A DNA stretch of 47,942 bases from Sphaeroforma arctica JP610. Its lineage: Eukaryota. The notes under the pieces are model-generated. The model was not told the origin of the DNA. It made no database searches and worked only from the letters and a program-made list of their open reading frames with translations. Where the stretch lies: the NCBI RefSeq assembly GCF_001186125.1, contig NW_014040544.1, positions 110,513 to 158,454 on the forward strand, in the 5' to 3' direction. The first letter of the stretch is position 1; the number at the start of each line of letters is the position of its first letter. A program made the translations under genes and the position numbers. Shown piece by piece: positions 1,986 through 39,360 of this stretch.

Positions 1986-2243
1986 GTTTCTACGCAAATA
2001 TTGTTATTGTCACTGATGTCTACTATATTATCGTATCTATCTATATTGTTAGTGTCAATAATGTTTGTTCGTAGTATTGTTTGTATCAGGGCACCTTCTG
2101 CCGCATTACTGGCGATCGCAATTCTCCCACTATCTATACCTCCACTCATTTTCACACCCCAGCCACATCAGGACATACTCTCTTGCCCTGGCTATATGAA
2201 CTCTCCCGAGACTTATCACACCTTCATCACCGAACACTGACAG

Positions 2244-5200: not shown

Positions 5201-6902
5201 TTCTGTGGGGTAAACCTCCGGATGGCTGGACGGTGGGTTGGGTAGTAGTTACTACTATTTCCACTCACACTGTTTTATTCTCGCATTTGATCCAACAGCG
5301 TCGTAGTAGGGGCCAGCGCCTGTGTTTGGTGATTGTCGCAGAGGGAGCCATTGACAGACACGGAAAGGAAATCTCAGCCGAGCATGTCAAGAACGTCATT
5401 GTCGAGCGCTTGCAGCATGACACTCGTATCACCATTTTAGGACATGTGCAAAGAGGCGGGCAAACCTCGGCATACGATCGCCTGATGGCCACCATCACCT
5501 CCGCTGCAGCCGTTGAGAAGGTGAATGACTCGTACATATATGTCGTGACTGTCAGTGTATGTTTACGGTTTAGGGTTTAGGGTTCTCAGGCTGGGCTTAT
5601 GCATGCAGTGCACAGACGCAAAGGCACACTTATACACCCTTAAAACCCTACAAGCACCTGACCAGAGATGCGCAAGCTGCTCGTACACATGTTGACAGGC
5701 ACGTTGATCAAGCTTATGCCCATGCTTGTTTGTGTGTCTGGTCGCACGCAGATGTATTTGTGTGGCTATGCTTTTACTACCAGCACGAGAACTTACCATG
5801 TGAAACCGGTGTACAACCACTGAATTCGCACATGGCGTCGTGATTACGGCTGAAAACCCGTGTCAGAATCCCTCGTACGCGAGCATTGTCATACCTACCA
5901 TCACTTCCACGTGGACTAACATCGTCCTGCTTACTTTCACCGGTAGTCATACCTACCATCACTTCCAAGTGGACTAACATCGTCCTGCTTACTTTCACCG
6001 GTAGTCATACCCACCGTCACTTCCAAGTGGACTAGCATCGTCCTGATTACTTTCACCGGTAGTCATACCTACCATCACTTCCAAGTGGACTAACATCGTC
6101 CTGCTTACTTCCACCGGTATATTCAGGTGCTTGTGGCTAAGCAAGGAGACCCGGCAACCATTGTGGGGATGAAGGGTTCCAAATGCATCTTTGCCCCATT
6201 GGTCGAGACTGTCCAAGCGGTAAGTCAGGCTTGTCATTAGGGCACATCGCTATACTTTGTATTTGCTGTAAGCTATATTGTTTCTAGGAATCGGGTCTGT
6301 TATCTGTTTTGGACTATTTGTTGTACATGAACGTTTATATGGCGAGACGATCTCTTGGGAGGTAGGTATTGTGCAGCACAATGGGAAGCAGTTGGACGTT
6401 AGAGCCAATATCGGGTGTCACGTGTATAGTCTGTGGATTGATGACGCGGACCCGATTTAGTTGTTCCAAAGCAAGTTCGTAGTAGCAACTTACTGTATCA
6501 ACGGGGTGAGGCGCGGTCACTATACATCTGGTTTCCAGATATAAAATAACTTGTCTACCTAGATAAGGACCGACCCTGTTTCACACCTATTTGTCCTGAG
6601 ACAGGATCAATGCCCTGAGTTTCGAAATCGGGACTTATCTCAAGTTTCTGGGCCTATACCTAAGACTACGAATATTCTCAACGGTCTTCAATATTGTTAC
6701 AGACACAAAAAGTGGCCGAGTTGACCATCAACCTCAACTTCGCGGGAGCTATCAAACAGCGTGGAAAGAATTTCGACCGTGACTACGCATTCCATCTGCA
6801 GATCAATGGAACGGATGTGCGTCTGGCCGATGGCGTCAAGGCGGGGGTATGTCTATATTATAATTGTATATACATATATATATATCTATATATGTATTTA
6901 TG

Positions 6903-6935
<33 letters not shown>

Positions 6936-9348
6936 ATATGTATATATATATATTATTATATTTGTGTGTGTGTGTGTGTTTGTATAGGTATACGTATAGA
7001 TATGTAATTCTGTATGTATGTATGTATGAGTACTGTGTATATTTATATTTATGTATTTGTGTATGTATGTATGTATATATTCATGTATTCATTTGTATAT
7101 GTACATGCATATGTATATGTATATGTATACGTATACTTTTATGTATATGTGTAGGTTTATATATATATATATATATACATATATCTATATCTATATCAAT
7201 ACATATCGATATCACATGGAGATCAAATGTATTCTTTTGTAGACTATGATGCCAATTATTTCTTAATAGTCGAAGACCATTTGTTACTCGGTCGAATAGT
7301 TCGCGCATATATTAGCGATGTTGTATGTTGTGTATATTGGCCTTCAGGTATTCGCATTTTTGGATCAATGTTCTCTTGTTCCTATCCCAAAATATATACT
7401 TTCACCAAATGTCTTCAGCATACCAATTTTCATCCTCAAATATTATCGTTGATCCATTTCTATGCTCCAAATAATATATGTGATCTATTTCCCCCCAAAC
7501 AACCTTAGCAAAGTATTTATGGGTCAAGATCCTCTAACTCGGTACAAGTGTTTGCTTGATGTACTTCTGAGAGCTTTATGCTGATACTGCCTGATCTCGG
7601 TCTCTTATTGGTTCATTATCGTGAATACAGGAACACGGTGTTGGACTAGTGCACGTCGGAGCCCCAGCTGCCGGTCTCAATTCGTAAGTGTCATTAGTAT
7701 TAGTAATAGATGTCGTGTGTGCTAATGCAACGAATAGATGATATCGGAGCCCCAGCTTTCGTAAGTGTCATTAGTATTAGTAATAGATGTCGTGTGTGCT
7801 AATGCAACGAATAGATTATATCGGAGCCCCAGCTGCCCGTCTCAATTCGTAAGTGTCATTAGTATTAGTAATAGATGTCGTGTGTGCTAATGCAACGAAT
7901 AGATGATATCGGAGCCCCAGCTGCCCGTCTCAATTCGTAAGTGTCATTAGTATTAGTAATAGATGTTGTGTGTGCTAATGCAACGAATGGATGATATCGG
8001 AGCCCCAGCTGCCGGTCTCAATTCGTAAGTGTTATTAGTATTAGTAGTAGATGTTGTGTGTACTAATGCAACGAATGGATGATATGCGACTTCCATACCA
8101 ACGATTGTTCTAACCGAACGAGTCGTAGGGGGACTCAGCCCATCTGTGAAACTGAACGTTATCTTCACGTGTGTATGTTATGCGTTTGCCGGGTGCTGTG
8201 AGGCGGCGACTGTATAGTGGAGAGTATCAGAACTTCGCCACTCACCACCAAGGCAACAACCTAACATACATTTACTGGCACATCCCTTTAGTTTAGAAAC
8301 AGTGGTACTGCTTTTATTCGTACTAACCAATACGTTATCTGAGCATGAACCGGTCCATAAGCGAATGTTCCAGCTGATCCGTAGCAGTATCGAATGTCCT
8401 TGTTGATGTTGACTCATCCTTGTTCTCGCAACCCTCCGATACCCAGTGCCACACGAGCTACAACACGCTACATGCTGAATCATGGCTGGAAGGTGTTCGG
8501 AGTGTCGGATGGCTTTCAGGGGCTAGCAGAAGGGCGGTTAAAGGAACTGGGATGGATCGAAGTGGGAGGGTAAACTATTTATCTATGTATGTCTATCACG
8601 TGTTATGTATGCAGATGAGACTGGATAGTATAGAGCTGTATGGCAAATTGACCGAGGTTTGAGATTAGCGTGTGGAACAAAATTGTACGCATTGAGTCCA
8701 AACCTCAAGCTCTTTAATCACGCCATAACACATCTCATCCAACTGTGGCCTTAGTATATTAGGTAGGCACTCTGATAGCCTAAATATATTTAACCGCATA
8801 CGATTCGACCAATTATATCTGCATGTGAATCACTTCGTGCCAGAATATATGTATATGTATGTATACGTATACGTATACGTATACGTATACGTATTTATAT
8901 ACGTATATGTATATGTATATGTATATGTATACATATATAATTTATATTTTATATATTGTATGTATGTATGTATGTATGTATGTATATATATATATATATA
9001 TTATTGATATTATTATTATTATTATTTGTACATATATTCAATCTGTTTGTTGTCCATATCGCCACTACAGATGGCATATGAGCGGAGGCTCGCGTCTGGG
9101 TGTAAACCGTAAGTTGCCCAATGAGGTGGGCATTGAACAGTGCGTGGCAACCATCAAGGCCAACAACCTGAATGCGCTTTTCATCCACGGAGGTTTCGAG
9201 GCCTTCAACGCCGCAGTGCAACTCAAAGAAGCGAGGTATGTGTGTGGAGATGTGTGTGTGTGTGTTGCGCGTCTCTATCTCTCTCGGACTCTCCTTATAT
9301 CCAAACGAACCGGTATATATCTATACATACCAATATATATACACACAC

Positions 9349-9418
<70 letters not shown>

Positions 9419-10895
9419 GCGCTATTTTGTTATCTCCCTTTGTACCATCAGTAAGTAGCCTATTATATTTTTGTAGCACCTGCATGGTCGTGTGTTTTCT
9501 CTCCCGCCCAGTTTTAATTGTTGATCACATGCCTCTTTGTACATATACTCCACAGTACCAATATCCTTGCCACAGCGAGATGAATCCGAGCTACACATCC
9601 TTACTACTTTATATCCGTTTATTATCGTCAAGTAGTTTGAATCAATTCTCATCACACCGACGATGGTATCCAACCTCAATGAGGGTTCACCTTCCATCGC
9701 CGCTGCATAGGGCCAATTGACCTGAGTTATACCTCTGTGTTATACCTGAGCTATACCCCCACATCAGTCACATTATTTAGACCACCAGCACTCCATAGTC
9801 TTAGTCGCCGCTATAGAGAGAGACGTACCCTGAGTTGTATGCCCACGTTCTGGTGATGCACTGCACTACCAGCATCAACCAATCACTTACTATCACATCG
9901 TTGGTCCTACTAACATCTGGACATGCCTTGGTCACCGCCGCTCAGGGAGAAGCACCCGGAGTTGAACATCCCCATTCTGGTGATCCCCTGCACCATCAGT
10001 AACAACGTACCAGGAACGGACTGGTCGCTGGGCTCAGATACAGCCCTCAATGCCGTGTGCGATGCTATTGACAGGACTAAGGTCTCCGCCTCATCCTCCA
10101 AGCACAGGGTGTTTCTGGTGGAAACACAGGGTATATATGGGAGTTGACAAGCCGCACGAGTATATGGAAGCGGTCTAGTACTGTACTCAGAATAGAACGT
10201 GTGCAACGCGTACGTGCATGACAGAGTAATCACACGCACATATATCGTAGGCATGTACCTAGAGATAACACAAGGCGGTTTTCTGATAGGGGAAACAGTC
10301 TTTATACGGCAAGAGTCTAGTAAGCAGGGACGGACCCCGTCTCCTGGTACATGCCTGCCTCAGTCATTTACCCGCTCAAAGCACCAGACCTCTACATTGA
10401 TCTATACTTTACTTAAACTGTCCCACTCTTCTCCGCTTATTCATCAACCTGTCCCGCCCGGGCTGGTGCAGGTGCAAACTGTGGTTTCCTGGCAGGTATG
10501 TCTGCCCTGGCCTCGGGTGCGCACAAAGCGTGGGTGCCGGAGGAGAGCTGTTGTGTAGCGGATCTTAAGACAGACATCGAAATGATTAGGAACAGAGTCA
10601 GCCGAGGGGGACAGTATTCGGTCATTGTCAAAAATGATAAGTACGTGGTCGGTGGTGTTTATCTATACGCATGCGCGATTAGCCGGGTTGTGATGTTGCG
10701 GGTGAACGAACATTTCGTAGAGAGGAATGCTATGTATATACATGCATTGTGTCACATAATCGCAGCTCAAGATTTGGCATGCCTGCGTAGCAAACCTTAT
10801 AGTGCCAATCGGATCGTACCGCTACTTACTGGCGTAGACTCTTATTAACATACATGCATGAATGTTCACATGTACAAAGTTCGGTACTATTTATC

Positions 10896-10928
<33 letters not shown>

Positions 10929-11833
10929 TCCCAGAGATGAACCTTATACCTCCACCCCGCCTGTACGTACGCCATACAGATGCAATGCTTCGTACGATCT
11001 CGACTTCTTTACGTCTCTGTACTCACAAGAGGCGCAGGGCAAATTCTCTGTACGGGACTGTTCGCTGGGACACTTGTGCCAGGGCATGTACCCCTCGCCA
11101 CTCGACCGCGTGAGGTCGGCCCAGTTGGCAGCCTTCGCAGTGGAAACCGTTCTGAAATCGGTAGGTGGTTTCCGGATGTGCTGTCTCTGTGTGTGGGATT
11201 TGCTGGGTGTGACTGTGGGTCTGAAGGGGATAAGACACGCACACTAGGTGCGTAGAAGTACAAACGAATGCCATTTCTGAACAGAGATAGGTATACATAC
11301 ATGCGCCGGTGCACAACGTTTTTCTGAACTATTGTACACACCACGTGCAAGGCCACGAGTCCGGAGACAGACCAGTGACAAGAGAACCAAGTCTATTCTA
11401 GCTAGGTTCGATCGATTGTAAACCGGTTATCTTGTGGATTTACGCTGGTATCTAAACTAATCACGAGTCGATGAGAGAGATGACTTACTAGAAACTGTAA
11501 ATGAGTCTTTGTGTGACTACATTCATGCGTAGAATATAAGCATACATATCGTACTCAAGTATGTTGGTTAACTTTTTTTGTCTACACATATCTGCAAAAC
11601 TATCACAGCTCAACGAGTCCGGAGACAAGCCCGTTGGGGTTGTAGGCCACCGTGACGGCAGCTGTAGGATGACATCCATTGATGAACTTTTACCAGAGGC
11701 TGACTGTGAGAAGCGTGTGTGGAAGAAGCAGTGGTTCCTGAAGTACCTACCACTGGTTGGCCTGCTGTCCGGTTATGAACTAGGAGTGGACGGCCCAAAA
11801 GTCTTGCATGACATGTTTGACATGAACGAGTAG
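2244..11833 (+). CDS. pfk: ATP-dependent 6-phosphofructokinase, eukaryotic duplicated type; 5' exon(s) lie upstream of the window
   Basis: Manually spliced GT-AG exons with consistent phases: 2244-2423, 3413-3500, 4110-4303, 4797-4928, 5299-5520, 6127-6219, 6703-6846, 7631-7683, 8447-8569, 9071-9235, 9946-10130, 10472-10640, 10980-11160, 11609-11833 (718 codons incl. stop). Catalytic-half motifs: [49 protein letters not shown]. Regulatory-half motifs: [32 protein letters not shown]. Confidence 0.96.
3065..3217. repeat. Intronic tandem repeat, 49-bp period, 3 copies
   Basis: GTATTGTTCGAACATGG recurs at 3068, 3117 and 3166. Confidence 0.85.
3810..4105. repeat. Intronic minisatellite, ~19-bp unit (ACATACCTACCATCCCATA-like), roughly 15 degenerate copies ending at the splice acceptor
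   Basis: Repeated acatacctacca motif runs up to the AG at 4108-4109. Confidence 0.85.
5889..6119. repeat. Intronic tandem repeat, 58-bp period, 4 copies
   Basis: TCATACC(T/C)ACC at 5889, 5947, 6005 and 6063. The unit contains a CTAAC branch-point-like motif. Confidence 0.9.
7657..8085. repeat. Tandem repeat, 88-bp period, 5 copies, spanning an exon/intron junction of PFK
   Basis: CGGAGCCCCAGCT...TTCGTAAGT at 7657, 7745 (internally deleted copy), 7822, 7910 and 7998. Confidence 0.92.
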
Positions 11834-17200: not shown

Positions 17201-19545
17201 TGTGGGATTTCAATTCGCTCACGTAATGGATATACTTGCGTATGGTGTTCGTTGTCAGTACACCGTATTGTACAGGTACTATATACGTGTGCGTATCGAT
17301 GCTACTACCTGGTGTGTTATTGATTTTTTTAGGCTCAAACGCCCAGCCTCCCAAACCCATACAGACCTTTGCGCAATCCAGCTCGATATCCCAAATATCC
17401 CAAGAAAGCCAAAAGTCCAATTAAAGGCACAAGCCAAAAACCAGCTGCAAAGATCAATACTCTCGGCAAGTACTTCTCTATTGATAGGAGTAAGGGTAAG
17501 GTGGAATCGGAGACTCCTGTTCCAATCAGTCATTCAGACGGTGTCATGCCACACACAAGAACACTTAAGGGCGTGGCTGTAGCTGATGGTACGGCCAATG
17601 GAGCAAGCGAGGATGCCAAGACCTCGCCAATGAGTTCTGACGCCTTGCCAAGAAACACCCAGAACTCAGAACTGCCCGCGGGGAATGATAAATGCACCGT
17701 GCACAGCGCTGGCAACGACGATCAGGGTGACGACGATGATGGGACGGCTAGCTTAGCTTTATCGGCCCAAAACCAGGACGGGGAGTCGGATGATCAGACC
17801 CAGTTACCTGCAGATCGACTCACGAACTCACAAATAAGTGCAAGTGTAGATTCGTTTGAGGACGCACTGACGATCTTACCCACACAAATAGGTACGCTAG
17901 AGCAGCCACATACACTTGTACCAACACAGACACTTGATTCACAGACGAATCCGATACTACCGCACACACAGCCCAGGGGGAGTGGACAGCCCGAGTCAAC
18001 CGTACGAAACGGACCAGAAAGTATATATACGATTGATGTGACTGAGAGTGTTTGTACAGCGACTGCACGACTCGATGTGGCTATCAATGCACAAAGCTGC
18101 GAGGGAGAGAAAGACGGAGAAGAGGTCGACTCAGTAGCACCGGCGACTGACCTGTTGCAAGAACCGCAGATGGACGATGAGATTCAGAGCGTAGACGAGA
18201 ACAAGACTAACAGCAGACTTCGCATGCGTTCACGTGACGCCAGTGCAGTAGGCACAGACGCCGCGGCACAGACGCCTATAGCGGAGACTGCAGCGTTGAT
18301 GGCACCGACGGAGTGTGTGCCAGAGGACTTGCTGGGTAGAAAGGCGTGTGCTGCGGTTGTGGGTGCTGGGGGGGGGGCTGGGGAGATGAGACAGGGCTGT
18401 AGCAAAATCAACACGGATAGACGGGCGGGAAGTGGCCAGGCTGTGAAGAAAGCGAATACGGACTTAAGTGATGGGGAAGGGCAGATGGACGATGGGCGAG
18501 TCAGCAGCGATACGAAACAGAAGGATGTACATGGAGAGCAAACTGAGAGGGACGGAGAGCCTATCAATCCGAGCAATCAAGAAGGGCATTCAGGCACATG
18601 CAGTACGCTAGCTGGCACAGGGGGCGTGCAGACGCATATGGGGGATAAGGACGGGGACGCATGTACCGGTTCAGATTTGGATCTGGACAACCTGTCGTCG
18701 AGTACGAGAGAGGAAAAGATAGATCATGTGTCGAACGGATTGAACGACCAAGTGAACCAGGGGGACGAAGCCACCCAACCCGACGCGAAGGTGGCTGTAG
18801 GAATAGACGTGACTGATGGCCAAGGTGACGATATACTTGGGCAAGATGAGGGAAACGGTGTATGTGGCATGCAGAGGTTGGTCGTGGAGATCAAGAACCG
18901 GGCTGGTGGAAGGATATTCAACCCACCACACCTGCACGAACAAGTGCAAGTGCTAGTCTATCTCAAGCTAACGGGATGCACACAGGGTGACCTCGTCCAG
19001 TACGTCGATAGCGACAGGGTATGTGGGCCGCTAGAGGTGTGCTTGTGCATACTAGGGTTGTATTGGAAGTTCAGGGCAGGATGTGTATATTTGTATAGAT
19101 ATATGTATACTATATACATATATATATGTGTGTGTGTGCTCGTACCTTCTACGTTTGATTATGTATCACGGGCGATCATATGCAATGCGATGGCGAGCGG
19201 TGTTGGCTGGCTGGCTAGGCTCTCATGGCATCTTAAAGATTTGTTTATATGACTTAGATTGCTGAGTGTATGCATGGGTGAAATGGGAAATACATTCATT
19301 CGGTGCATTCGCATTGATTGTTAAGTCATTGTGTATGTTGGTCTTCGTGTTCGAATGAGTGATATATCTCCGACAATATCTTCGTGTTCTCTCTATTTCA
19401 TATGTTCATTATATTCAACTGAGGCTTCCGTATAAAGGCTGAGTCTCGAGTCATTGTTTAATGAGATTACCAAAATTCCGACTACAGTGCGTTGCGATAT
19501 ACATGCAGATATAATCCTATATATGTACATAATTATATATGTGAA

Positions 19546-22547: not shown

Positions 22548-24788
22548 CGTGTATGTCTGTATTCGACTGAGAAAAATATGAGTCTTGCACACGGACTCCT
22601 CGAGTTCTTATATACAATTACATACAGACCTGGCAAGTAATTGACAATCTAACAACTTACAACTAAATACTCTCTTGGAACTAAAAAGGACTTGGGATGT
22701 CCATTTTTATTTTTCCGTTGGTTCATAGCCTTCTTGTAATATTTAGACAAGGTTATGGTAATATGGTTGGTTGCCTAATACTCATTTGTTGTTGTTTTGT
22801 TTTTGTTTTTTAAACAAAAGTAAAATATAAAAATGCCGAGGCCCGCATCGACTCAGTAATTCAGTATTCACCATATATTTACTCCAGCTGAATTAGTAAA
22901 TACTAGATTGTGTAAATATTAAATATTTACATAGAGTTGTCGGCTTGTCGCATAGCCATCTGTATAATTTAGAAGGCTACGTATGATATGGTTGTCGCTG
23001 TTCAGACTACAGAGTTCAGAGTTCAGAGTTTCAGACATCAGTGTTCAGCCGCGACGTGTAGTGCATGTCGTTTGGTGTTGCGACAGTCAGGTCTGGATCA
23101 ACACTGGGTCTGTCGCCGACACCCGACGCCGACTGACATGTCTGACAAAATGTCGTGCCGACACGTCTGACATGTCTTTTTGCCAAATGTCGGCGTCTTT
23201 TCCCAGCCCAGCAAAGTACATATCAGTATGTAATTCTATTCACTCTCTACGACTCTACTCTCTACATACTACTCTAGAGAGTAGTAAGTAGTAACTACTC
23301 GAGAACAGTTTTTCCTCTCGGTTGTCCAATGACATATTGGACAGGGGATCCCGGCGATTTTTTACTACCCCGGAGCTAATGTATGTGCATTCTAAATATG
23401 TACTCATAACTCAGGTATGTAAATATGTATATGTATTTGTTAAAAATACTCTATTGTACTATGTAATATATGTTTATACATGGTTAATTTTTCTTTTCTT
23501 TTCTGAAAAATAAAATGATGATTTTGTAGTCACGGCCCTCAGCCCCTCACTGGTGCCGTTAGCCCTTTACTGCCGTATACAGTATCGACACAATCAAATA
23601 TCTAAAATTCTTGTACATATCGACAGTACAGGATGTGACACTTGACGTCACACTTGCCCTAGGACATAAGTCGGACGGTCCTGCACCCAGGACTCAGTAC
23701 AGGTTCACTTCAGATGGAAAGGTTCATCATTTTTTTACAATGAAAAACAGACTGTTTTTAATAACTCTAAAAGTGCCGGACAAGTCTTCTGGAGTTTTTT
23801 TAGAAATATTCCGGACACAAGACAAGCCGGGCCAAAAACAAAATGAGACCCCGGCCGAATATATAAGGACTACAAGGATCAGTATGAAACAGCACTTTTT
23901 TTTTCAAAAATTATTATTATTATGAGCCGATTTTGTGAGTCCTCCACATACTATTGTTGCCGTTGGACTCGAGGTAAATATTTGGTTGATTCTTACACTA
24001 CTATTGAGGGGCCAGTAAAAATTGGAAATTAAATATAGACTGGAAATTCCTACTCTTGTGATTTTGCTCCTAGAAAAGACGAAAAAAACTCGACAATACT
24101 CTTTATCATTTGGTGCCAACTGACACCAACACACACACAAGCACGTACAGCAAACAAGGTCAATTTAGTCTCAATCGTGTTTGTGAACATAATATGATTA
24201 TTTATTTGCGTTCGTGTGGATACATTCAACGTATAATATGGTTGTAATATTGAGCTCATATAAACAAAATTTCGGAGAGTATCCGGGTTAGCTATTTTCA
24301 GTATAATTTGTACTATAAATGAGTAATGATATGTGACCCACTAGCAGTACAAACTCCCTTGAAATTGTCAGCAATAAAATTACCGGAGAGTATCCGGGTT
24401 TTACAATTCCTGATTCAAAACTGAATGGAGAGAATCTCATTGGCTAGAATACGGTCATAAAATTTTGGATACAATTCTGGCCAATTTCCGTTACGAAGTT
24501 AGGTTTACTGTCATAATAATCAGGTCTGAGGATAAAGCTACGCATCCAAATTGGAAATCGGAAAGATGAAGAAAAAAAATCATGCACTTGAGCTTGAAGG
24601 TTATTTACGGACCTTTGATTCAAATTTTCGCCTCCGAAACGTAAATCTCGGTGACCAGTAGGTCACCAGTGTAGAACTGAATACCACTTTCAAAAAAACC
24701 CACAGACCCCACCAAAACGTTGACTTGAAATTTGGATTTTCAATCAAAAATTAAAATTAAAAAAATTTATCCAGTAGGGAGTCTGGGG

Positions 24789-24874
24789 ACCCACAGTCCC
24801 ACAGTCCCACAGTCCCACAGTCCCACAGTCCCACAGTCCCACAGTCCCACAGTCCCACAGTCCCACAGTCCCAC
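24789..24874. repeat. Octamer tandem repeat (CCCACAGT)n, ~10 copies, at the 5' edge of the LINE remnant
   Basis: Direct reading of the sequence. Confidence 0.95.
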
Positions 24875-24885
24875 ATCCGCGAAAA

Positions 24886-27800
24886 TTGTCGGGCCAGGCC
24901 GAATCCCCAATTGAGACGTTCGTCCCCAACGACTCCTTACCCAATGACCAATGGAAATTGAACATACAAAAATTTATCACAAACCTCTCTGCCCAGGTCA
25001 GTACTCTACAGGCCAATCTCAATCAAATTTTGGGACCGGCTCTAACAACCCCGAACAGTGATGCCTTTGACTGATGACCAATGGAATCAACCATACACCA
25101 AATGCTCACTAACATCTACCGCAGACCGTCTCCAGAAGGCTTCCCAACNNNNNNNNNNNNNNNNNNNNAACACACACTACCATATCCTACACCACAATAC
25201 ATAGCATAATATCTTACACCCTTTACACTGTGGTATTGGCATCTTTTCCAAACACCACCCATCGAATTTTCAACTTGTACACTCTTCACCGTACGCGGTG
25301 TTCTTTATGTGCTTTGGCGTTCATATGGCCGTGTTCTACTTTCCACTCAAATCGCTCACTGAAGAAGACGTCAGGCGATACATGAATCCCCCCGAGATTG
25401 GCGGTTTACAACCAGATGTCGTGTGGGGAGATTTCAACTTCAAAGCCCGAAAGTATGGCCACGCATCTACAAATCACGGACTAGTATGAAAAAGATTGAA
25501 ACTATTCTGCGTAAGACGTGACACTTGAACTACCTTTATGCTGGCGGCTCAACTGGTACTGAATATGCGTATCATCGACCTACCACCCCCGCCTCCCTCC
25601 AAACTTATAAGCTGACGGACTACGGTATCTGTGTTGACCACACCTTTGGGCTCGATCTCCAGATACTTCCCCCGAATTAAATCCATCGGCCCCAACAAAT
25701 GCCAGCAATGCCGCCGCCTCCGGACCAACGCCTCCCTTCCCATGGATATAACCGATATCGCCATCGACTGTATCACCTACGCAACAAATCTTGCGCGCGA
25801 TTATTCCACCTAAAGCCAGCTTGGGTAGCATAACTGTAGCCTCCTAACAGCGCGCCCAAAGAAATCCGATGCAGATATCACCTCCCCCGCCGACTTCCGC
25901 CCCATCACGCTTACGCAAATAGTCAGACGCATCTTTGAAAAGTGCTTTCTTAATCTGATTACGAGCCACCCCGGCTCTGCTACCCATGCTACCCAAGCTG
26001 GCTTCAAATCACGGTACCCCTGTCATACCCAAGTACTTGCCGCCATGGAATCTGAGACATACTCAGAAGAGTAGTAGAACGACGCCTGTCTGGACATAAC
26101 CAGAGCATGCGACAAGGTCGCTCTCCCACGCCTATGGGTACTTCTGCGTCGCGCTGGAATGCCCGAAAACTGGATCAACTGCCTCCGCGCGCTGTTGGGG
26201 AGGGTCCCTACCCGAGTGACATACCGCGACACGCTCTCGTCTCTATTCCATAGAACGAATGGCATCCTACAAGGCTCAATCGTCGGCCCCCAGCTCTTTA
26301 TTATCTACATGGATTCCTTAGCTGTCACGCTAGCACAATTTTGGCCCAAGCTCCTCCGCTCCTATTTATTTGTTGATGACACATGGATCCAAGCCCCTCG
26401 ATCGGTTTTGCTCCAGCCCTTCTTAGATGACGTTGATGCGTGGAGACGCAAATCTGGCCTCGAACCGGGTGTCATTAAACCCCGAGTATGATCTACCGAC
26501 TTGCGACACGCGGCGCCAACCCTCCGTATAAATGGAGAGCTTATCACGCCGACGCTTGCAGACGCACCTTGGAACACACGTTACCTCCCCCTGAAACTGG
26601 CGCCCACACATGCCGAACCGAAGCACTCCAAATACCTGGGGTTCCCACTCTCTCACGGAGTACCAGGAATCAACCTCGCTAAACATATGCAATCCCTGGT
26701 TGCAGCATTGTCACTGGGTATCGCCTCTTTCCGCGCTTATGGCTTCCATGGCTTCAGCTGGCGACACCCCCGCAATCGACTGGTGATGTTCAAAACATTC
26801 ATCCTATCCACGGCTACATATGGGATGAACATTATTGCCTGGGCTCCGCCTATATGGAAGGATGCGTTGGACCCCCTATTCGAGCGCTTTAACTCAGCAC
26901 CCATCCAAGCAGCAGCCATCATCACGGACACTATACACCCTCGGTTTCCCAAACATCAAACAAACTTACTTCACTTTTGCGGCCTGCTTCCCGCGCAACC
27001 ATTCGTGGACTACCTCGGAGGTTGTCTGGGAATACAAATTGACTCGGTGGACAGCACAAATCCACTTACTCCTCTGACGCAGCCCGCCTGGGCCCACGGA
27101 TAAACCATCACTGCACTTCCCGTACAGTATCTATGCTCACCTGAAAACTGTACACAAAGCCACGGGCGGGCGTACACCCGACCATGTAGCCCTCCACCAA
27201 CGCTGTGACGACATCAGGAAGAACTCAACAAAACGTTGGTCCAACAAGGGGATCGCGGCAATGGCCCGGCGCCAAATACTACCAACTGGTTATGGGTAAA
27301 CCGCCAACCTCAAACCGAGACACAGCCAGACACGACAGCTTCAATCGCTGCTTCGAGTCTATACCAATCCGGCTCTGTGCTATGATTGTAACGAATATGT
27401 ACATGTTCACATTGCTCGACTACCGCGTCGACGGCTGTCTCTGCCCTGTCTGCCCCGGTAGCCACAAGTTCACTACCAGCCACTTTACCTGCATCCAACA
27501 ACTGATTCGACGCATCCTGGTAGGCCCGAAACTGCCGCCCATTGGCCCTGACCTCCTTCAGCAATTACAGGAGTGCCACGACTTCCACGGTATCTGGACC
27601 CTCCACAAACACCTTGGATCTTTTCACCAGCACGCCGAAGAACCACCATACCCTCACCCGTCCTTGACACATCAACAGATGTTCCCCATACCCCGGCTAA
27701 TCACGCTGTTAAAGTACTACTTCCAAATATCGGTTCAACCCAAATCATCGCGCTTGTTGGTTCCGACTATGATACTTCCGATCCAGGCCAGCCAACACAT

Positions 27801-28240
27801 ACCGAATTCATCCGTGGTCTGATGCGGCATTGACTTACCCCCATCCTCGCTTCTCGACCGGATTATGACGGATAACCTGGTCCTTCTCGGTATTTCATAC
27901 TCTGCACTAACCCATTCCGCGGCACTACACGGCGCAGACCCGATCCGTACCACAGAGGTGGGTACTCTACTTAGTAGGTCAGCAAGCGAATATATGGAAC
28001 ATTCGATAGAACCAGTGTTTTGTCAACACCGGCCCGAATTGACTCAGCACATATCTTCCATTGTCGACTCACTTGGCCCAAGCTTCAAACGGGAATTTAC
28101 TGACCACTTCTTCCCATCAATCTTTCCTGAACCACTACAGCGACTATGAGAGCCATACCATATATTCATATATTGTATCATACATACTTGCCATTTTTGA
28201 AATAAATAATATTATCCCTATTGATTTATACATTTATGAA
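24886..28240 (+). mobile_element. Decayed non-LTR retrotransposon (LINE) with AP endonuclease, RT and C-terminal Cys/His knuckle
   Basis: APE motif VVWGDFNF (~25420); RT motifs PADFRPITL, QAGF, GILQGSIVGPQLF, FVDD, KYLG; CPVC...H..C at ~27440. Many stops and frameshifts; last ORF ends at 28149. Boundaries approximate. Confidence 0.88.
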
Positions 28241-28302
28241 TGGTAAGTTGCAGTATACACCACAAAAAAGGTAATTGCTCATCCTAAGAGCAACGTTCTA
28301 CG

Positions 28303-28440
28303 ATGGAATTTCCTGAGTCCTTTGCTAGTGATCAACCATACTCTACGTGCAATAGGTGGGTTGAGTCAGAAGAGTGGACTTTTTGCGAGTTATGCGATCA
28401 AAAATGGCATCTACCCTGTGCATACATGCGAGGAGAGCAT
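28303..28440 (+). pseudogene. PHD-finger-like fragment
   Basis: STCNRWVESEEWTFCELCDQKWHLPCA matches the W..C..C...WH..C core of PHD fingers. Confidence 0.5.
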
Positions 28441-28611
28441 GGTCATGATTATACTATTAATTATGGACGTCATCGTATAGGATGTTACATGATGGAGAAC
28501 GTATATGTACAAGACTAACACGACGCCAGCTGACCTTTGGATGAACTACAGAACAACCATGAGGAGAAGGTGATAAACTTTATTTGAGCTTTTAAGGTTG
28601 CTATTCCTGAT

Positions 28612-30849
28612 TTAAGTTCCCTGATCATCGAACTGATCGATGAACTCCTCGAAAGAAGGCGTATGGAACAACTGATAACAACTGTAATTTCTCCCTCGGA
28701 TAAGCTCTTTACATAAACGCACCTTACAGTGCACACATGTTTTGCTAGTCTCACGAGTGCAACCAGCAATCGCACAAACCCTGTAATCGTGGCGTGATCT
28801 TTCACCCGTTCTGTCTGATCCACATACAACATTGTCTGGGACACTATAAATGTGCCAGCGATGACCGCCACTGTCACAGCGCAATTTGTTCAATTCCCCA
28901 TTTGCAATGAATGCGACTGCTTTGTTATTCCTACGTATCTTCGCAACCTTATCTGCTACCTGATCTGATGTTAAATTGGAAAGCGGATCATACTGACTCT
29001 CCGATTGAATACACCTGTGTTTCCTATTTCATCGTCGTTTACAGTATTGGTAACTGGTATGATGCCGGTACTGTGTGAGGCTTTCTTCTGAACAGCCTTA
29101 CCTATTGGGCCCTTCACGACTTCAATAACAAATTCATTAAAAGGTAATTGCCTTGTACACTTCTTTCTAAACTTCTGTAATGTCCATGTTGTACTGTCTT
29201 TAAAATGAATTTGTATGTGTGTGGCCTGAAATGCATTCATCAGCAACTGGTCAAAGGATCTGGTGACTAACTTAGATTGAAATCCCATCGCATTATTGCT
29301 AGTACATAATTGTTCAGTGTATTGTGTTGCCTTGTCTACGCCAGGTTTGAGCTTACTCTATAACTTTGCGCAGCCGCTGATAATGTTGCTACAGGGCAAC
29401 ATAAGCCCTGTCTTAGTAACATAATCGTGTACGACTTTCCACATTGGGATATGTGAATCAACTAAACGCTTATCGTATTCTGAATAGATTCCAGACGGAC
29501 AAATCTTGTTGTAATATGCCCAGGAAGGACACGCATCATACCTCCGTAATGCGGTGTAGTATGTATTACGTACTTCAGGTGGCACGTTCACTAGCACCAT
29601 GTAAGTTATATCATTTGTGGTGCAAACAACGAACAAAACATAGTCGACCTTGAGTACCAAAGCTTCTTGTATAACTTGGCCTCTATACTGTTTTTGTACT
29701 TCGTCAAACCAGGCCTCATCGACAACCTTGCAAGAGAAGTATCTCTCCCTTCTTTCTCGAACAAGCATACGCTCTTGTCTGAGCGAGTGTGCAGCAACTG
29801 TTTTCACTTCAACTGCACATATGGTTTGTACAGTGCGAGTCTTCGGTGCATGTACGCGAGCTATTCCATCTGTTTCGATTAAAACAATAGATTTATTGAG
29901 TGATGATAAGTGTAAACAAGCGTGGCATGGTAAAATTAATAAAAATGTTACACAAAAAGACTTAGGCATGCACACACAGTCTATCAGTATGAACGACTTG
30001 ATTCATTGAACGAACCCTCCTTCATCGGCTCCGTCGAAAATTGTCTGCCGAACCACCCATCTACTAGCTTATTAGCGACTGCTTTGAGCTCTAAAGTCGT
30101 CGCCGGATATAGATCATTGAACTCATTTAGCAGTTAGCGTCGATAAACGAAAAAAATAGATACATCACATCACTTTATAACATAGCGAAATACATCGGGA
30201 ACGAAGTCTGGCAGCGGTTGGCCTCTGATATAGAATTTTTCAGGCACTGCGGCTTCAGCTGGACGTGTCTACTCATCTGCGTCCTCATCTTCTGAGTCGC
30301 TTATTGGCGGCTCATCAAAAAATATAATTCCATAGTATCTTCAATCACGTTGGGCTAACTTTCAACAGCTCGCCCGTGATTGTTGTTTGCTCCACTGAGT
30401 CTCTCATCATCACAATCGATGAGATGAGGCATGTCATCGTAAAGACCAGGGAAGGATTGGGCAGAGCATTTGATGATGTTCTCCCTGTGGTATGTGATTC
30501 CACAAGGTATGGTCGGCATAATGTATCTCGATTCGTTATCATGTGGCCAACGGTCCCAGTGATTTTCGGAAGATGCCTGATTGCATACTATACAACTCAT
30601 TCAATTATTACACGTATATCTATATTCGCCAGTCTTCTGATCGAACTTATCGTTGCAACACTTATCGTGTGCAGCGTTACTGCACACGATGCAAACCCTT
30701 ACATCTGACACTAACGCAACGTCTTGATCACAAACGATGCAGCCCTGTTGCACGACTGGTAAACTAACGGCCTGTGCCTCCATAGTTGCCGTATTCCGTG
30801 GCTTCGAGCCCAACCTACGCCCTCTATTTTGAGTCATTGGGCGCTTCAA
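28612..30849 (-). mobile_element. Decayed DNA transposon ORF: N-terminal PHD-like fingers, YqaJ-type nuclease, piggyBac-like C-terminus
   Basis: In order on the - strand: CIVC...CIVC..AHDKC...YTC (30600-30760); WFGRQFSTEPMKEGSFNE (~30005-30060); DGIA...AVEVKT...YRGQVIQEA (29670-29875); in-frame *SKLKPGVDKATQY (29310-29360); KLVTRSFDQLLMNAF; terminal CAIAGC...CVHCKVRLC...SCYQLFH (28660-28780) resembling the piggyBac cysteine-rich domain. Confidence 0.7.
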
Positions 30850-31837
30850 GTGAGTTTTAGTAAGTGTAAAGTTAGTACATCAAGGCTATACAGTCTATAC
30901 TATCACAGTGCAAGAGGTAACGTACCACAGATAGCGAACTAATCACTGTATGGAAAAATGGTTTTCGAGACCCATAGACAGTTTTTTGCTGACATGAAAT
31001 CGCGTGCGATGGATTCGTCAATATTCTATTACCACCCAACGTGGCCTATGACCAATTAAAAGGCCTATGAATACCCAGATACTATCCGGGTTCCTAAGAA
31101 ATATTATTTGGGCCAGAAATTTGATAATCCGGAGACTCTCTGGGTTCTATATGAACTGGTGATATGTCGCAGTCTGAGTGAAGATCGCTTCAATCTTTCC
31201 CTCCATTTCTTTTCAGTTTCATCTCTGTCTCAGTGTTCAGCGCAGTCTCTCCTGTAATAGCCGGGCCTCCACATTAGATTCTATGTTATAAACGTACTCT
31301 TAAGCAGTACGTAAATTATAAACGTACTCTTAAAAGTACGAGGAACTAAAGTTTCCTAAATGGTTTTTAATGGTTTTATTAATTAATACCTTTTTCATTT
31401 TACATATCAGATATTTGGACGAGGCCATTAAAAGGCCCCAGTAAAATACCAAACATAAAAGTTGGTCTAGTTCTATTAATAGAACTATATTTACTTTCCA
31501 ACTTTATTTATATCTGAATACTTCGGTAGCGAGATGGCTCAACCGAATTTAGGTTTCTAGGGACTATTAACGTTACCTAGTTGATCCTCCGATCAGCCAA
31601 CCGGTTGTGCCAGTCTGATGAAGGCTAAGTCGGTAATTATTGATAAGTGGCAAGTTATTGGTTAAGACAATAACTAAGGACGTCAAGAATTAATTTTTTC
31701 TTCTTCTTCTAAAGATAGGATTTTATGAGTTTCTCGGATTCGCCCCAATGAAACATACCATAGTTTCTAATTGAGCGACAACGAAACACTAAATAAAGTC
31801 CCTTCGGCGGAAATAGTACTGAGAGGATTATATGTAG

Positions 31838-32013
31838 GCAATGTCTCAGCTTCACAACCCCTCAGAGTATTGCTGTTTTCACGAGGCATACATAACTTTA
31901 CTAAAAGTCTCATTTCGTTTATTTACTTTGATATTTTCACGATACTTAGAATAAACCTACGGGTTTATTTATTCTAAGGCGTTAATATCGCCTTAATAGA
32001 CCGAATCTTACAC
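31838..32013 (+). repeat. Left copy of a ~175-bp inverted repeat (partner 35241-35416)
   Basis: First 76 bp are ~88% identical to the reverse complement of 35341-35416, with a perfect 30-bp core CCCTCAGAGTATTGCTGTTTTCACGAGGCA. The remainder is more diverged but colinear. Confidence 0.85.
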
Positions 32014-32768
32014 TCTTACGTTCTCCTGCAGACCTTTGAGTCGGCTGGTCATATTCTTTCTTTTCTCATCAACTTTCTTCCATTTTTTCTTTATTCATTG
32101 TCTGCATCCGTCATTTGAACCATTATGTGGCTATACTCCTGCTGACAACTTGCATGCTGTAATGATTGTTCTAAACTAGTATACTTCATTACAGCTGCAG
32201 AATTTGCTGCTTCGTAAAGCTTGTAAAAATGCTCTCCGTCGCTGTGCATGAGTTCCACCTTTCGCTTGGCCATAGCCATTTTGTCAGTTGATTGTTTCTG
32301 AAGAGCAGCTTCATGCTGATCCTATTGCGCTCTGAGTGTTTCGAGGTCTATTTCGTTTCTATATTGAAATTCCTCGATCTTCCCTTGTACTGTCTTCTCC
32401 CTTTTTCTTTTGTTCACTGTTGCTATGGTAATATCGGCAATTGCCATAGTCGCTGTCAGTGGCACGTGATGAGAAATTGTTTTAAACTACTGCTGTAAAG
32501 CCTCATGTGTAACAGCTGAGAGTTAAGCTCCAACCGCTACACGATCTTCATCAGGCGACCATATTTGCACAGGGTGTTTAACTACACTTCTCACTGCTCT
32601 TTTCACTGCCAGTTCTTGCTTCTTTTCCGTACTTTCAATATCATTTTGTTGAAGTATATTGCCTTTGACGATACTTTGTTTTGAGTACTTGTGAACTGTC
32701 GAGTCTTATGCTTGAAGGGGAGAGGTTGTCTGTGTACACGCCAACCATCTGCTGTAAGATTCGGTCTC

Positions 32769-35050
32769 TTAAGGCACGTCATCAACTGGTCCTTGTACAT
32801 CAGGGGCTTGTTGGACTGCGTGCTTGAGCGCTTTAAATGCGTCATCACACTCTTTAGTCCACAAGTCTCCTAGTTTGCCTTTATGACATCTTAAGTGTCC
32901 AAAAGGTTTAAGGTATTCAGCCAAGTGTGGTACTCCATCTGAAAAGAAGTTTACAAACCCACACATGCTGTTAACATCTCTTCCTGTAGTTGGTGTTCGC
33001 CAATCTAACAAGTGTTCTACCTTACCGGGGTCGATTTTAATACCTTCCCCAGATATTCGGTAGCCTAAGAGCTGTATTTCGCTCATGGCGAAGTGTCATT
33101 TCTTCTCGTTAATCTTGAAGTTTTGCTCGTTGAGTCTCTGAAGGACTCGCCTGACTAATTTGGCATCTTCGCCCTTCGTCTTGGAAAAGATGACTATGTC
33201 ATCAAAATAGACTTGTGCATTAGGAATGTCTGCAAACATTTCCTCCATTACTTGTTGGAAGAATTCTGGTAAGGAGTGCAACCCGAAAGGTGCATCTCTA
33301 AACCTGTATTGTTTACCTTTCCAGGTAAAACTAAAGTACTTACGATGGGGTTCATAAATTTGCATTTGATGATACCCCTGTGTTAGGTCTATGGATGTAA
33401 ACACCGTAGTAGCACCTTCCATTCGTCTCAGTAACACGTTTATACGAGGGAGATGGAAACTATGAGTCGGCAATAACTTATTTATTGGACTCATATCTAA
33501 ACATACTCTGACTTTCTTAAATATTCTGTCAGAATTGGATTGATCAACTGCCAATATTGCTAAGTTAACTGGCGTTTGTTGGTAATTGATTTCGATTATC
33601 GCATCGGATAACCATTTCTCAACTTGTTCTTTAACTACAGCTTCGTGTCTCCAAGAAACATAGTTTCTTGAAGGGCATTTGAGTTTAGTAAAGTCTACCT
33701 TGGTTAAGTCAAGGCTGACATATCCGTCGTTAAAACGGAATTTTGCCCAATCTGTGATCTTCATTTTCTTATTTACTAGAATCAGATCTATGATTTTGTC
33801 CGCAAAGTCAGGTAGTATTGCCTTGACTGTGTCTGACGGGGGCTTATATGGTTTCAGACAGGTATCGTCTGATTGATCCTTTAATGGATCTATATTATTT
33901 GGTAAATCAGTTACGGTTATAACTAGAGTGAGTAAATCACTCATTCCGACTATTAAGTCGAACTTCTGTGACATTTTAACTATCACAGCTTGGGTAGTGA
34001 TATTTCTATCATCGGCCAGGGAGATTTTAACATCTGTGATGGTATCACACTTAGAAGTTTTGTCATCTGCTAAGATTAGGTGAGTAGTTTGAGTTCGCCT
34101 TTCAATGTCTTTCATTATTGCAAAGCGGTCGGATATACATAAAATTTCTGAACCAGGATCAATCAACGCAAGGACTTTATTTCCATTGCAATATACAGGG
34201 ATTATTATACGCTCGTCTAAAGAGTCGTTGTATTTCCTTTGTAACGACTGTACCTGGTAGTACTTTCACTCCAACTTAATGTCGGGCTTTTTGTCACAAG
34301 ATTTGGCGTGATAGACATTGGTCTTCTCACACTTGTCACACTTAGTAAGAAAGTGTGTACAGGTGGGTGCATGTCTGCCATTCCAATAACCGTTAGGGGT
34401 CAATTGGTACATATCGTACTTAATTTTCTTATACGGGGATTCCTTTGACTCGGCGCGCATCTTCTAAACAGGGCGTGCATTCTGAACAGAGTCACGAGGA
34501 CATGCCTGAGGCGGCTTCTCATTGGAGGTCTGCCGAGATACGTACCCTTGGTCAATCTGATCACGTGGTTTCTTAACAACCGCCTTCTCTCTCGAGGTCA
34601 CGCTCTACTTAAGCGCAGCTAACTGATTCTTAAGTTCAGTATTTTCTTCGGTCAACTTACTTATACGAGCTGGTTCCGTCGATTTTGATTCTGATTCGGG
34701 CTGGCTCTTTGAGCTTTTCTCTTCTTCATCGTCCTTCGGTGGTTCTTTTTCACCTTGGGATTCGTCATTCTCCCCCGTAACCGGAAATCATCCTTCTGAG
34801 TAATCTCATCAGGGTTGTTTGGGGTAGTCTTAAACGCTCCCCTTGCTTCACTTCGTGGCTTCGTAAATGTTAGCTTAGAAGTAGATGCAATAGTTGGCCC
34901 TCGGACTCTTTCTTCGGGGGACTTCTCTCTTAATGAAGTCGTCTCTCTCTTGTCGGTTGCATTGTTCTGACTGTTAACGCCAGCGACAATAGCTTCGGCT
35001 ACGGTGCGGTTAAACGCATCGGCTGCAGCAGTGGCAGCGTTTTTATCCAT
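32769..35050 (-). mobile_element. Truncated Ty3/gypsy-like retroelement A: gag-like ORF, aspartic protease, RT; no RNase H or integrase visible
   Basis: gag-like fragments with Cys/His cluster (CTHF..KCDKC....HAKSC); protease ALIDPGS; RT motifs RVCLD, IDLTQGYHQ, PFGL, YFDD, LLGYRIS; similarity stops at ~32770. Confidence 0.88.
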
Positions 35051-35240
35051 ATTCTTTTTTCAGCCTTTTGCTTCTTAGAAGGGGTGTGGTCTTTCTTTAG
35101 AAGGGGTGTGGTTAACTTATGACTTCAAGGTATTCTCTTAAGGAATCACTGATCTTTTTTGGCCAAGAAAATTTTATGGTAGTCAATTACCACTACGTTT
35201 GGGCAGTCTAAGTAGTTAATACTTTTACTAACTTTAAAAT

Positions 35241-35416
35241 GTGTAAGATTTGATCTCTTCAGGTGATATTAACGTCTTAGAGTAGTTAAACGTAATAAAG
35301 TCTTCTAAAGCTCAAATGAATTTAAAGCAAAATAAAGGTAATTAGTCTTTTAGTAAAATTAGGTTTGCCTCGTGAAAACAGCAATACTCTGAGGGATTGT
35401 GAGGCTGAGAAGTTGC
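35241..35416 (-). repeat. Right copy of the ~175-bp inverted repeat, upstream of gag of element A
   Basis: Reverse complement aligns with 31838-32013. Confidence 0.85.
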
Positions 35417-38602: not shown

Positions 38603-39214
38603 GTTAGAGTCAACAAGGTACTCGCCTGTACTCTAAGCATATAAATATCCTTGCCACACACAACCACCACTCATTGTTTCATGACGTTCTGTTTCGTATG
38701 TTTATGTCCAAAGTGTTATGCCATGCCTATGTATGTATAGTGTTGGGCTGTGGTATATGTATCGCATCAAGGACATTATATCACACCACCCACGTATCAC
38801 TGGGATGTATTAATGTTATCTCAATGAGATCTTATACTGTATTTTAATTAAGCCTATATGTATAGTCGCTGTAGTATTTGTTATGAATATGTATATACGT
38901 GTGGATATATCTCTGCGATTGTGTTGTAGTATCATCGCCGTTATACTTGACCTATGTGAATGGTACATGATAAATAAGACTTTTGTAATGTTAACTAATA
39001 GCCTATCCTGTATATGTCGTGGAAGTATTGTATTCATGTCTCAAAGTCTACGTAAGTTTGCTTTATTAATAGTAATGTGTGAGTGTGTATCTTCTCGTGC
39101 AGACGTCACTCATGCATGCAGCAAGGACGCAGCCCCGGCCAGACATACCAACAGCCAAGGCCGCTCTAACCTTGGACCAGCCGTCGCTGTCGTCGACTCT
39201 CCCGAGTTTTAATC

Positions 39215-39360
39215 CACTTACGGTATGCAGTCACCACGCTCGGATCATCAAAAGCATCCGCTGTCACCCATGTGGGAGAGCCCTCTAACCAGCGCACCAG
39301 GTACTCCGATTGCTGAGTCGCTTCATAGTGGCGGTGTGATATGATGTGCCGGAATGTCGA
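39215..39360 (-). other. Chromodomain at the integrase C-terminus
   Basis: FRHIISHRHYEATQQSEYLVRWLEGSPTWVTADAFDDPSVVTAY. Confidence 0.8.

Follow-up and report, generated by a model that had tools for sequence, protein, structure and literature searches.

The stretch of DNA analyzed here (the window; 47,942 nucleotides from Sphaeroforma arctica JP610) is rich in microsatellites, and its positions 28612..30849 lie in a nest of mobile elements. On the minus strand, this region holds what is very probably a deleted, frame-broken piggyBac-type transposon. In intact relatives of this element a single polypeptide includes a lambda-exonuclease-like domain, placed between catalytic aspartates two and three (D2 and D3 of a DDD triad), and resection of donor-site ends is the leading candidate role of that domain. 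The preliminary description of the region had proposed the C-terminus of a piggyBac-like transposase fused to a YqaJ exonuclease and PHD-like fingers, and all of the motifs it named were recovered in place, all on the minus strand. The coding remains, in the direction of reading, are as follows.

30601..30837, minus: frame start and one PHD-like finger (30786-30947 also covered by a second copy)
30477..30590, minus: start of the nuclease domain (ITGT motif)
30130..30194, minus: AT-rich intron-like stretch, variable acidic linker (GC 0.27 over 30140-30195)
29999..30094, minus: nuclease segment W...T..M..G..NE
30055-30002, minus: WFGRQFSTEPMKEGSFNE (W..NE motif)
29872..29998, minus: intron-like stretch (GT...AG; GC 0.32) in place of 32 missing nuclease residues
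29361..29873, minus: YqaJ/lambda-exonuclease-like core and following helices (D 29870, E 29810, K 29804, Q motif)
29870-29859, minus: DGIA motif
29813-29799, minus: VEVKT motif
29687-29664, minus: YRGQVIQE motif
29360-29358, minus: TAG stop, at the conserved Tyr of the Y..xK.GVD motif
29088..29360, minus: piggyBac third-Asp region and following helices (D3 at 29336-29334)
29357-29319, minus: SKLKPGVDKATQY
29273-29229, minus: KLVTRSFDQLLMNAF
28612..29001, minus: C-terminal part with the Cys-rich domain, past a frameshift near 29000
28776-28663, minus: Cys tail, in a separate frame

Several features were also noted elsewhere in the window. An intron-rich 6-phosphofructokinase gene occupies about 2200-11800 (plus), its closest solved relatives being mammalian (one exon tested), which points to a likely opisthokont host. 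The long, acidic frame of low complexity at 17333-19252 (plus) has a PD-(D/E)XK/YqaJ-like motif (ExK ... Q.Q..Y) at its end; this frame had no Pfam or PHROGs match, was not scored by the six-protein YqaJ profile described below, and is possibly a host-gene exon. A very high-copy element of ~760 bp with sharp ends (31253-32012) is inserted in the flanking two-copy repeat and has a partial inverted relative at 35241-35416. Additionally, remnants of two Gypsy-like LTR retrotransposons (protease, RT, integrase) lie at 32700-35060 and 39166-43024, both on the minus strand.

Transposase and nuclease remains in the window copy

Pfam searches with pieces of the window matched neither YqaJ nor DDE_Tnp_1_7 and, because Pfam was blind to both domains here, small custom profiles were built. 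A YqaJ profile of six proteins from genome bins (six of seven loci were used) scored 20.5 bits against the 303-residue read-through frame, which none of 2000 shuffles reached, and gave no signal for the short upstream exon (758/2000 shuffles). The YqaJ run across one TAG that had been described is borne out by this score and by the position of its motifs, except that the W..NE motif is read in a different frame from DGIA. For the transposase, canonical piggyBac loci were taken from pattern scans, after removal of six that were not piggyBac and four that were duplicates or irrelevant. A canonical piggyBac profile (35 sequences) scored 12.2 bits against the third-Asp region and a canonical Cys-tail profile (11 sequences) scored 9.7 bits against the window Cys tail, each unmatched in 2000 shuffles, and these two regions were the top piggyBac-profile matches across the six frames of the window. 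Both scores uphold the earlier assignment of a piggyBac third Asp and Cys-rich tail, with piggyBac profile similarity present at 28612-29360. With the selected GVD motif left out, the piggyBac profile gave no signal in the window copy (337/2000 shuffles). A shuffle test of the motifs themselves carries little weight, its patterns having been written after the sequence was seen, and its D3 pattern went unmatched because of the TAG.

Other searches with the window sequence were largely negative. None of the 532, 183, and 292 candidates from word-index protein searches was significant, pieces of the window had no match by sequence in the PDB, and none of seven window frames was present in the protein collection by exact look-up. 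The best phage tblastn match had only E=7, PHROGs gave only a RecE-like match (E=0.05), and no related loci were found in viral contigs. The one metagenome locus (L001) was rejected, its similarity being a coincidence on the strand opposite to a bacterial gene. The single-sequence fold of the window protein (pLDDT 33) was too low for use; Atlas returned YqaJ clusters at 0.93 for the window sequence, a weak lead, and no usable match for the third-Asp part. During these scans, eukaryotic piggyBac transposase DNA was seen in many prokaryotic GTDB genome bins (L012-L051), reflecting host contamination, and a frameshifted canonical piggyBac transposase was seen in a giant-virus bin (L002, 861-3046). 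The read-through protein matched none of five contaminated genome bins.

Relatives with a nuclease inside the transposase

An exhaustive protein search with the read-through frame recovered 163 relatives at E<=0.001, and the homolog set comprised 161 sequences, specifically the 150 matches listed (of 163) together with 11 cluster members. Among these listed matches and cluster members, 107 of 161 had a single continuous match that began at the nuclease Q motif and included D3, and, as judged from these sequences, the nuclease-transposase fusion is real. Twenty proteins were looked up, with named members coming from Hondaea fermentalgiana, Gracilariopsis chorda, Plasmodiophora brassicae, and marine protist transcriptomes. 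P0007, a Hondaea protein whose annotation reads cytochrome c peroxidase, also contains a member of this transposase family and is probably a merged gene model.

Full-length relatives carry both domains in one polypeptide, in the order D1, D2, nuclease, D3, and Cys-rich tail. Pfam matched YqaJ in seven of 25 long relatives at E<=0.05 (three above the cut-off) and DDE_Tnp_1_7 in four of the 25; the pair of matches that the preliminary description had expected was absent from the window pieces and present in relative P0003, which carries DDE_Tnp_1_7 at 287-501 and YqaJ at 643-787. A profile of 36 relatives matched canonical piggyBac with 98% probability over the N-terminal part, and matched both piggyBat (E=1e-14) and piggyBac (E=2e-12) in collinear pieces with a gap between, those of piggyBat being three in number (profile 30-336, 744-806, and 902-957). 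Lambda-exonuclease-like structures matched weakly at profile 467-580, inside the gap (R354, E=0.007; 3syy, E=0.29).

Both catalytic sets were conserved in the 24 long relatives compared, in which D1 was present in 22, D2 in 21, and D3 in 19, while the nuclease residues E, D, E, and K were present in 23, 24, 20, and 21, respectively. Profiles, conservation counts, and fold match together give the family the catalytic residues and fold of PD-(D/E)XK nucleases, and profiles placed a Cys-rich domain at the C-terminus, as in the piggyBac superfamily. In the 10 of 24 that had all three transposase motifs, D1-D2 spacing was 78-83 residues and D2-D3 spacing 444-666, as compared to 78 and 101 in the Trichoplusia ni piggyBac (PMC7351741), so that the D2-D3 interval is not the short three-stranded insertion domain. 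At the position of the fourth Asp of piggyBac, the family mostly has T or S, with D in 3/24. An N-terminal zinc knuckle was found in eight of 28 long relatives, and the PHD pattern was absent from all 161 homologs. In a tree built by a quick method (53 rows), the window copy fell on a long branch without supported placement.

An AlphaFold model of relative P0159 (131 sequences; pLDDT 89, pTM 0.84) had as its ranked fold matches 6x67 (piggyBac transposase), 3slp (lambda exonuclease), and 9c0f (piggyBat), with a TM-score to lambda exonuclease of 0.61-0.65 (normalized by target length), and the pairing of folds first described from the fragment was in this way recovered in a full-length homolog. 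Several strands were modeled at 346-398, before the nuclease (about 445-710) and the D3 helix. The nuclease had been described as sitting where the piggyBac insertion domain normally lies; its location between D2 and D3 holds in the homologs, but in the model it appears to have been added after a retained beta-rich insertion region and not to replace the insertion domain. The insertion-domain site accommodates a domain of several hundred residues.

A family profile of 28 proteins (four of them near-duplicates) matched four segments of the window in order, at 30563-30477, 30094-29999, 29873-29088, and 29001-28657. The third match is circular, since that segment was the search query, and the other three are independent: the ITGT segment (profile 522-550, 3.3 bits, E=0.003), which a paralogue contig also matches at 30514-30566, the W...T..M..G..NE segment (profile 553-584, 14.5 bits, E=1e-6), and the C-terminal part (profile 904-999, 26.2 bits). 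No family-profile match to the D1/D2 region was found anywhere in the window, in agreement with the internal deletion of the first two catalytic Asp proposed beforehand, and the window copy retains only D3 of the triad. The deletion ends immediately upstream of 30477..30590 and its junction falls at the PHD-like finger region. There, one PHD finger at 30741-30601 is plausible from its sequence (C4HC pattern at 30741-30655, TGA at the last Cys position, one further CxxC after the finger; Pfam PHD E=0.023, below the cut-off). The second of the proposed fingers was discarded, as the family profile and the paralogue contig revealed it to be mostly the nuclease ITGT motif read in another frame.

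The AT-rich stretch reported to interrupt the YqaJ part is indeed intron-like (GT...AG, 29872..29998). However, the 32 family-profile positions between NE and DG (585-616) had no match in any of its frames, and because these conserved residues are absent, splicing it out would not restore the nuclease. The stretch at 30130..30194, with a GT start and a CTAAC motif, is a candidate intron. One extra A at window position 30149 was present in 6/6 runs covering the site in long contigs, and its absence from the window is probably an assembly slip inside this intron-like stretch. With D1 and D2 deleted, 32 nuclease residues lost, one stop, and one frameshift, the window copy is dead and unable to make an active transposase.

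The coding part had single-copy depth in contigs of sequencing runs, at 80% identity. A diverged paralogue contig matches 29661-29690 and 29787-29819; over 20 codons compared, 14 residues were identical, all 14 through different codons, and 18 of 26 base differences were at third positions. Because these stretches were chosen by DNA mismatch, not protein identity, the pattern indicates purifying selection on the nuclease frame. The low copy number and identity of the coding part, and the nest of mobile elements around it, could also be taken to suggest that the fusion is an accident of this locus in which a nuclease fragment and a piggyBac tail were joined by nested insertions. That reading, to which we give almost no weight, is refuted by the continuity seen in 107 of the 161 listed matches and cluster members and by the four separate window segments that match one family profile in order.

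Boundaries, termini, and target of the element

Boundaries were drawn by comparing contigs of public sequencing runs with the window, and gave the following features beyond the coding remains.

31162..31165: ATAT target tetranucleotide, here in one copy; also found in the empty site and in two other copies with differing flanks
31146..31161, minus: left (5′) terminus, beginning CACCAG; the empty-site contig joins at 31162
31127..31145, minus: 19-bp imperfect palindrome, bp 17-35 from the end (7/9 pairs here)
31073..31091, minus: second 19-bp palindrome of the left end (8/9 pairs; 9/9 with a substitution from another copy)
28222..28611, minus: 3′ untranslated arm up to the nested LINE, at single-copy depth
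24774..28221, plus: non-LTR retrotransposon nested in the 3′ arm of the element (RVT_1 43 bits; 5′ boundary approximate; 20-N gap)
24271..24773, minus: right arm of the element, with a palindrome-like motif at 24271-24288 and 24381-24399
24248..24270, plus: flank continuing into the empty site, a 23-nt exact match to the loose end before 31162

Two contigs represent other copies that share the left end, their matches to the window ending at 31166 and 31167, and in a third (runs X14 and X7) the right-hand flank begins at 31162 and is preceded by different letters. Of those letters, 23 match 24248-24270 exactly and uniquely in the window, followed by 7 more in the contig. When this contig is read as the empty site, the insertion spans 24271-31161, nested LINE included, which extends far beyond 28612..30849 and leaves an element of about 3.44 kb without the LINE; the empty site would also place 28222..28611 inside the element. 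Because two diverged versions of the flank exist, what is read as the empty site could be a paralogous copy of the repeat instead of an allele. Position 28255 (CACCAC, TAT flank) was also considered as the right end but was dropped when the empty site pointed to 24271.

At the nested LINE, depth was very high between 27500 and 28221, many loose ends fell at 28221, and ATTTAT stands on both sides. This very high-copy retrotransposon has an 8-nt tandem array near its 5′ end, and a second 3′ end of it is inverted at 47541-47683. Its 3′ end also adjoins another copy of the piggyBac-like left end.

The left terminus fits five of the six positions of the piggyBac end motif in PMC5381638. A second left end differed from that of the window at 21 positions plus 3 gaps in 245, a divergence that marks the family as old and low-copy here. 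ATAT(G) occurs in the empty site and after three left ends, and on this evidence of three left junctions and one empty site the target is ATAT, and not the TTAA for whose duplication the preliminary description had proposed a test. A survey of 157 piggyBac-like elements (PMC5381638) lists ATAT only as a rare site.

A substitution seen in two other contigs raises the outer palindrome (31127..31145) from 7/9 to 8/9 pairs. By analogy to T. ni piggyBac, in which a dimer of the Cys-rich domain binds a palindrome at bp 17-33 (PMC7351741), this is likely the predicted binding site of the Cys-rich domain. Leaving the left end aside, the two right-arm motifs were the best matches in the window to the left-end motif, and since the first of them stands at the junction, the copy lacks ~17 terminal bases, the second ATAT, and 7 bases of flank. 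The left end starts with C and palindromes occur at both ends; with the right terminus deleted, the left terminal repeat has no readable partner and target duplication is visible at one end only.

Relation to known elements and role of the nuclease

The family resembles piggyBac (T. ni, PDB 6x67/6x68), piggyBat (Myotis, PDB 9c0f), and Pfam DDE_Tnp_1_7 in its DDD triad with D1-D2 near 80 residues. It also shares with piggyBac and piggyBat the Y..xK.GVD motif, the C-terminal Cys-rich domain, and the top fold match, as well as a 19-bp palindrome ~17 bp inside the end and a palindromic 4-bp AT-rich target. Unlike them, it has 340-560 extra residues between D2 and D3, which hold the nuclease domain, its target is ATAT in place of TTAA, the fourth Asp is mostly absent, and the N-terminus bears a zinc knuckle (8/28 long relatives) or, in the window copy, a PHD-like finger. 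With lambda exonuclease and YqaJ (PDB 3slp, 1avq; PF09588) it shares the fold and a conserved E...D...ExK...Q set, but the family nuclease is embedded in a transposase.

We also considered whether the element belongs to one of the superfamilies known to bear exonucleases, ISL2EU (PHIS) or KolobokE, which are likewise eukaryotic cut-and-paste elements with a YqaJ/lambda-exonuclease-like domain (PMC4122938, PMC9587614). Their transposases are unrelated to that of this family. The nuclease of ISL2EU is a separate, YqaJ-type ORF (PMC4122938) beside a THAP-DDE transposase, and that of KolobokE lies downstream of the DDE transposase domain (PMC9587614) in an element with RR..YY termini and a TTAA target, whereas here one polypeptide with a piggyBac-type core holds the nuclease inside the triad, the left end starts with CA and not RR, and the target is ATAT. 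The profile match over the N-terminal part and the fold match both assign the triad to piggyBac, and assignment to ISL2EU or KolobokE, now very improbable, is largely refuted by them.

The literature searched yielded no account of a piggyBac whose transposase has a YqaJ domain inside it, although the supplement of PMC5381638 and a review of eukaryotic transposon classes, both outside the search, may hold one. The word "exonuclease" is absent from the main text of that 157-element survey (PMC5381638), and the available text of PMC3706591 and PMC5718144 has nothing on a nuclease-in-piggyBac design. Plasmodiophora brassicae holds members of the nuclease-piggyBac family. Repbase has a group "piggyBacX" from protists and red algae. 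The repeat label "DNA/PiggyBac-X" has been applied to P. brassicae repeats (bioRxiv 10.1101/2025.07.30.667784) and may, at a guess, name this family; no definition of the label was found in the literature searched. The window copy is a real but dead member of a widespread and probably under-described piggyBac variant.

An intact member would be expected to cut and paste via the piggyBac hairpin route (PMC7351741), with the Cys-rich domain binding the end palindromes as in piggyBac. The tethered nuclease would then trim 5′-phosphorylated donor ends, the trimmed ends would block seamless rejoining, and repair would be pushed toward re-copying the element from the sister chromatid, so that the donor copy is restored and copies are gained overall; we hold these last three steps tentatively, at somewhat below an even chance, and the same applies to donor-end resection as the role of the nuclease. 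The 5′-3′ exonuclease activity is itself presumed from the nuclease family. In piggyBac, hairpin and target DNA occupy a channel lined by the insertion domain (PMC7351741), so that a nuclease there would sit beside flanking DNA.

That position fits equally well a role in which the nuclease of the same element trims 4-nt 5′ flaps at the transposon ends or integration joint, such that imperfect targets are tolerated, and 7 target bases are missing at the single right junction. Yet ATATG is common to three left junctions, a palindromic fixed target lets the flap simply anneal, as in piggyBac (PMC7351741), and the loss at the right junction also took ~17 element bases, which suggests a later deletion. 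We regard flap trimming as a minority possibility. The fold could instead have been kept as a non-cutting DNA-binding or scaffold module. Lambda exonuclease is a trimeric ring that prefers blunt or recessed ends, properties that fit a dimeric transposase and 5′ overhangs poorly and count against donor-end resection. This trimer geometry, hard to square with the transposase dimer, and the loss of catalytic residues in a few long relatives would favor such a module, but with the catalytic D present throughout the 24 long relatives, and E and K in 20 and 21 of them, it is improbable.

A broader reading builds on donor-end resection, and we consider it doubtful as a whole. Here, the family would form a pan-protist piggyBac branch, as yet undescribed, with ATAT as its target and an internal end-resecting nuclease, which would defeat seamless excision and steer the break to homologous repair, with a copy gained per jump. 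The window copy would add an opisthokont host and, at the N-terminus, a PHD chromatin reader, and the loss of 7 target bases at the right junction might be a nuclease footprint.

The piggyBac transposon is used in genome engineering for its scarless excision and TTAA insertion. A natural branch with another palindromic target and a second nuclease in its catalytic core makes the re-coding of target choice testable, and likewise whether a transposon can increase in copy number by steering how the host repairs its donor site. The dead window copy is of value for its defined end, target, and palindromes and for a wider host range, while intact relatives (e.g., P0003, P0004, and P0009) provide the experimental material.
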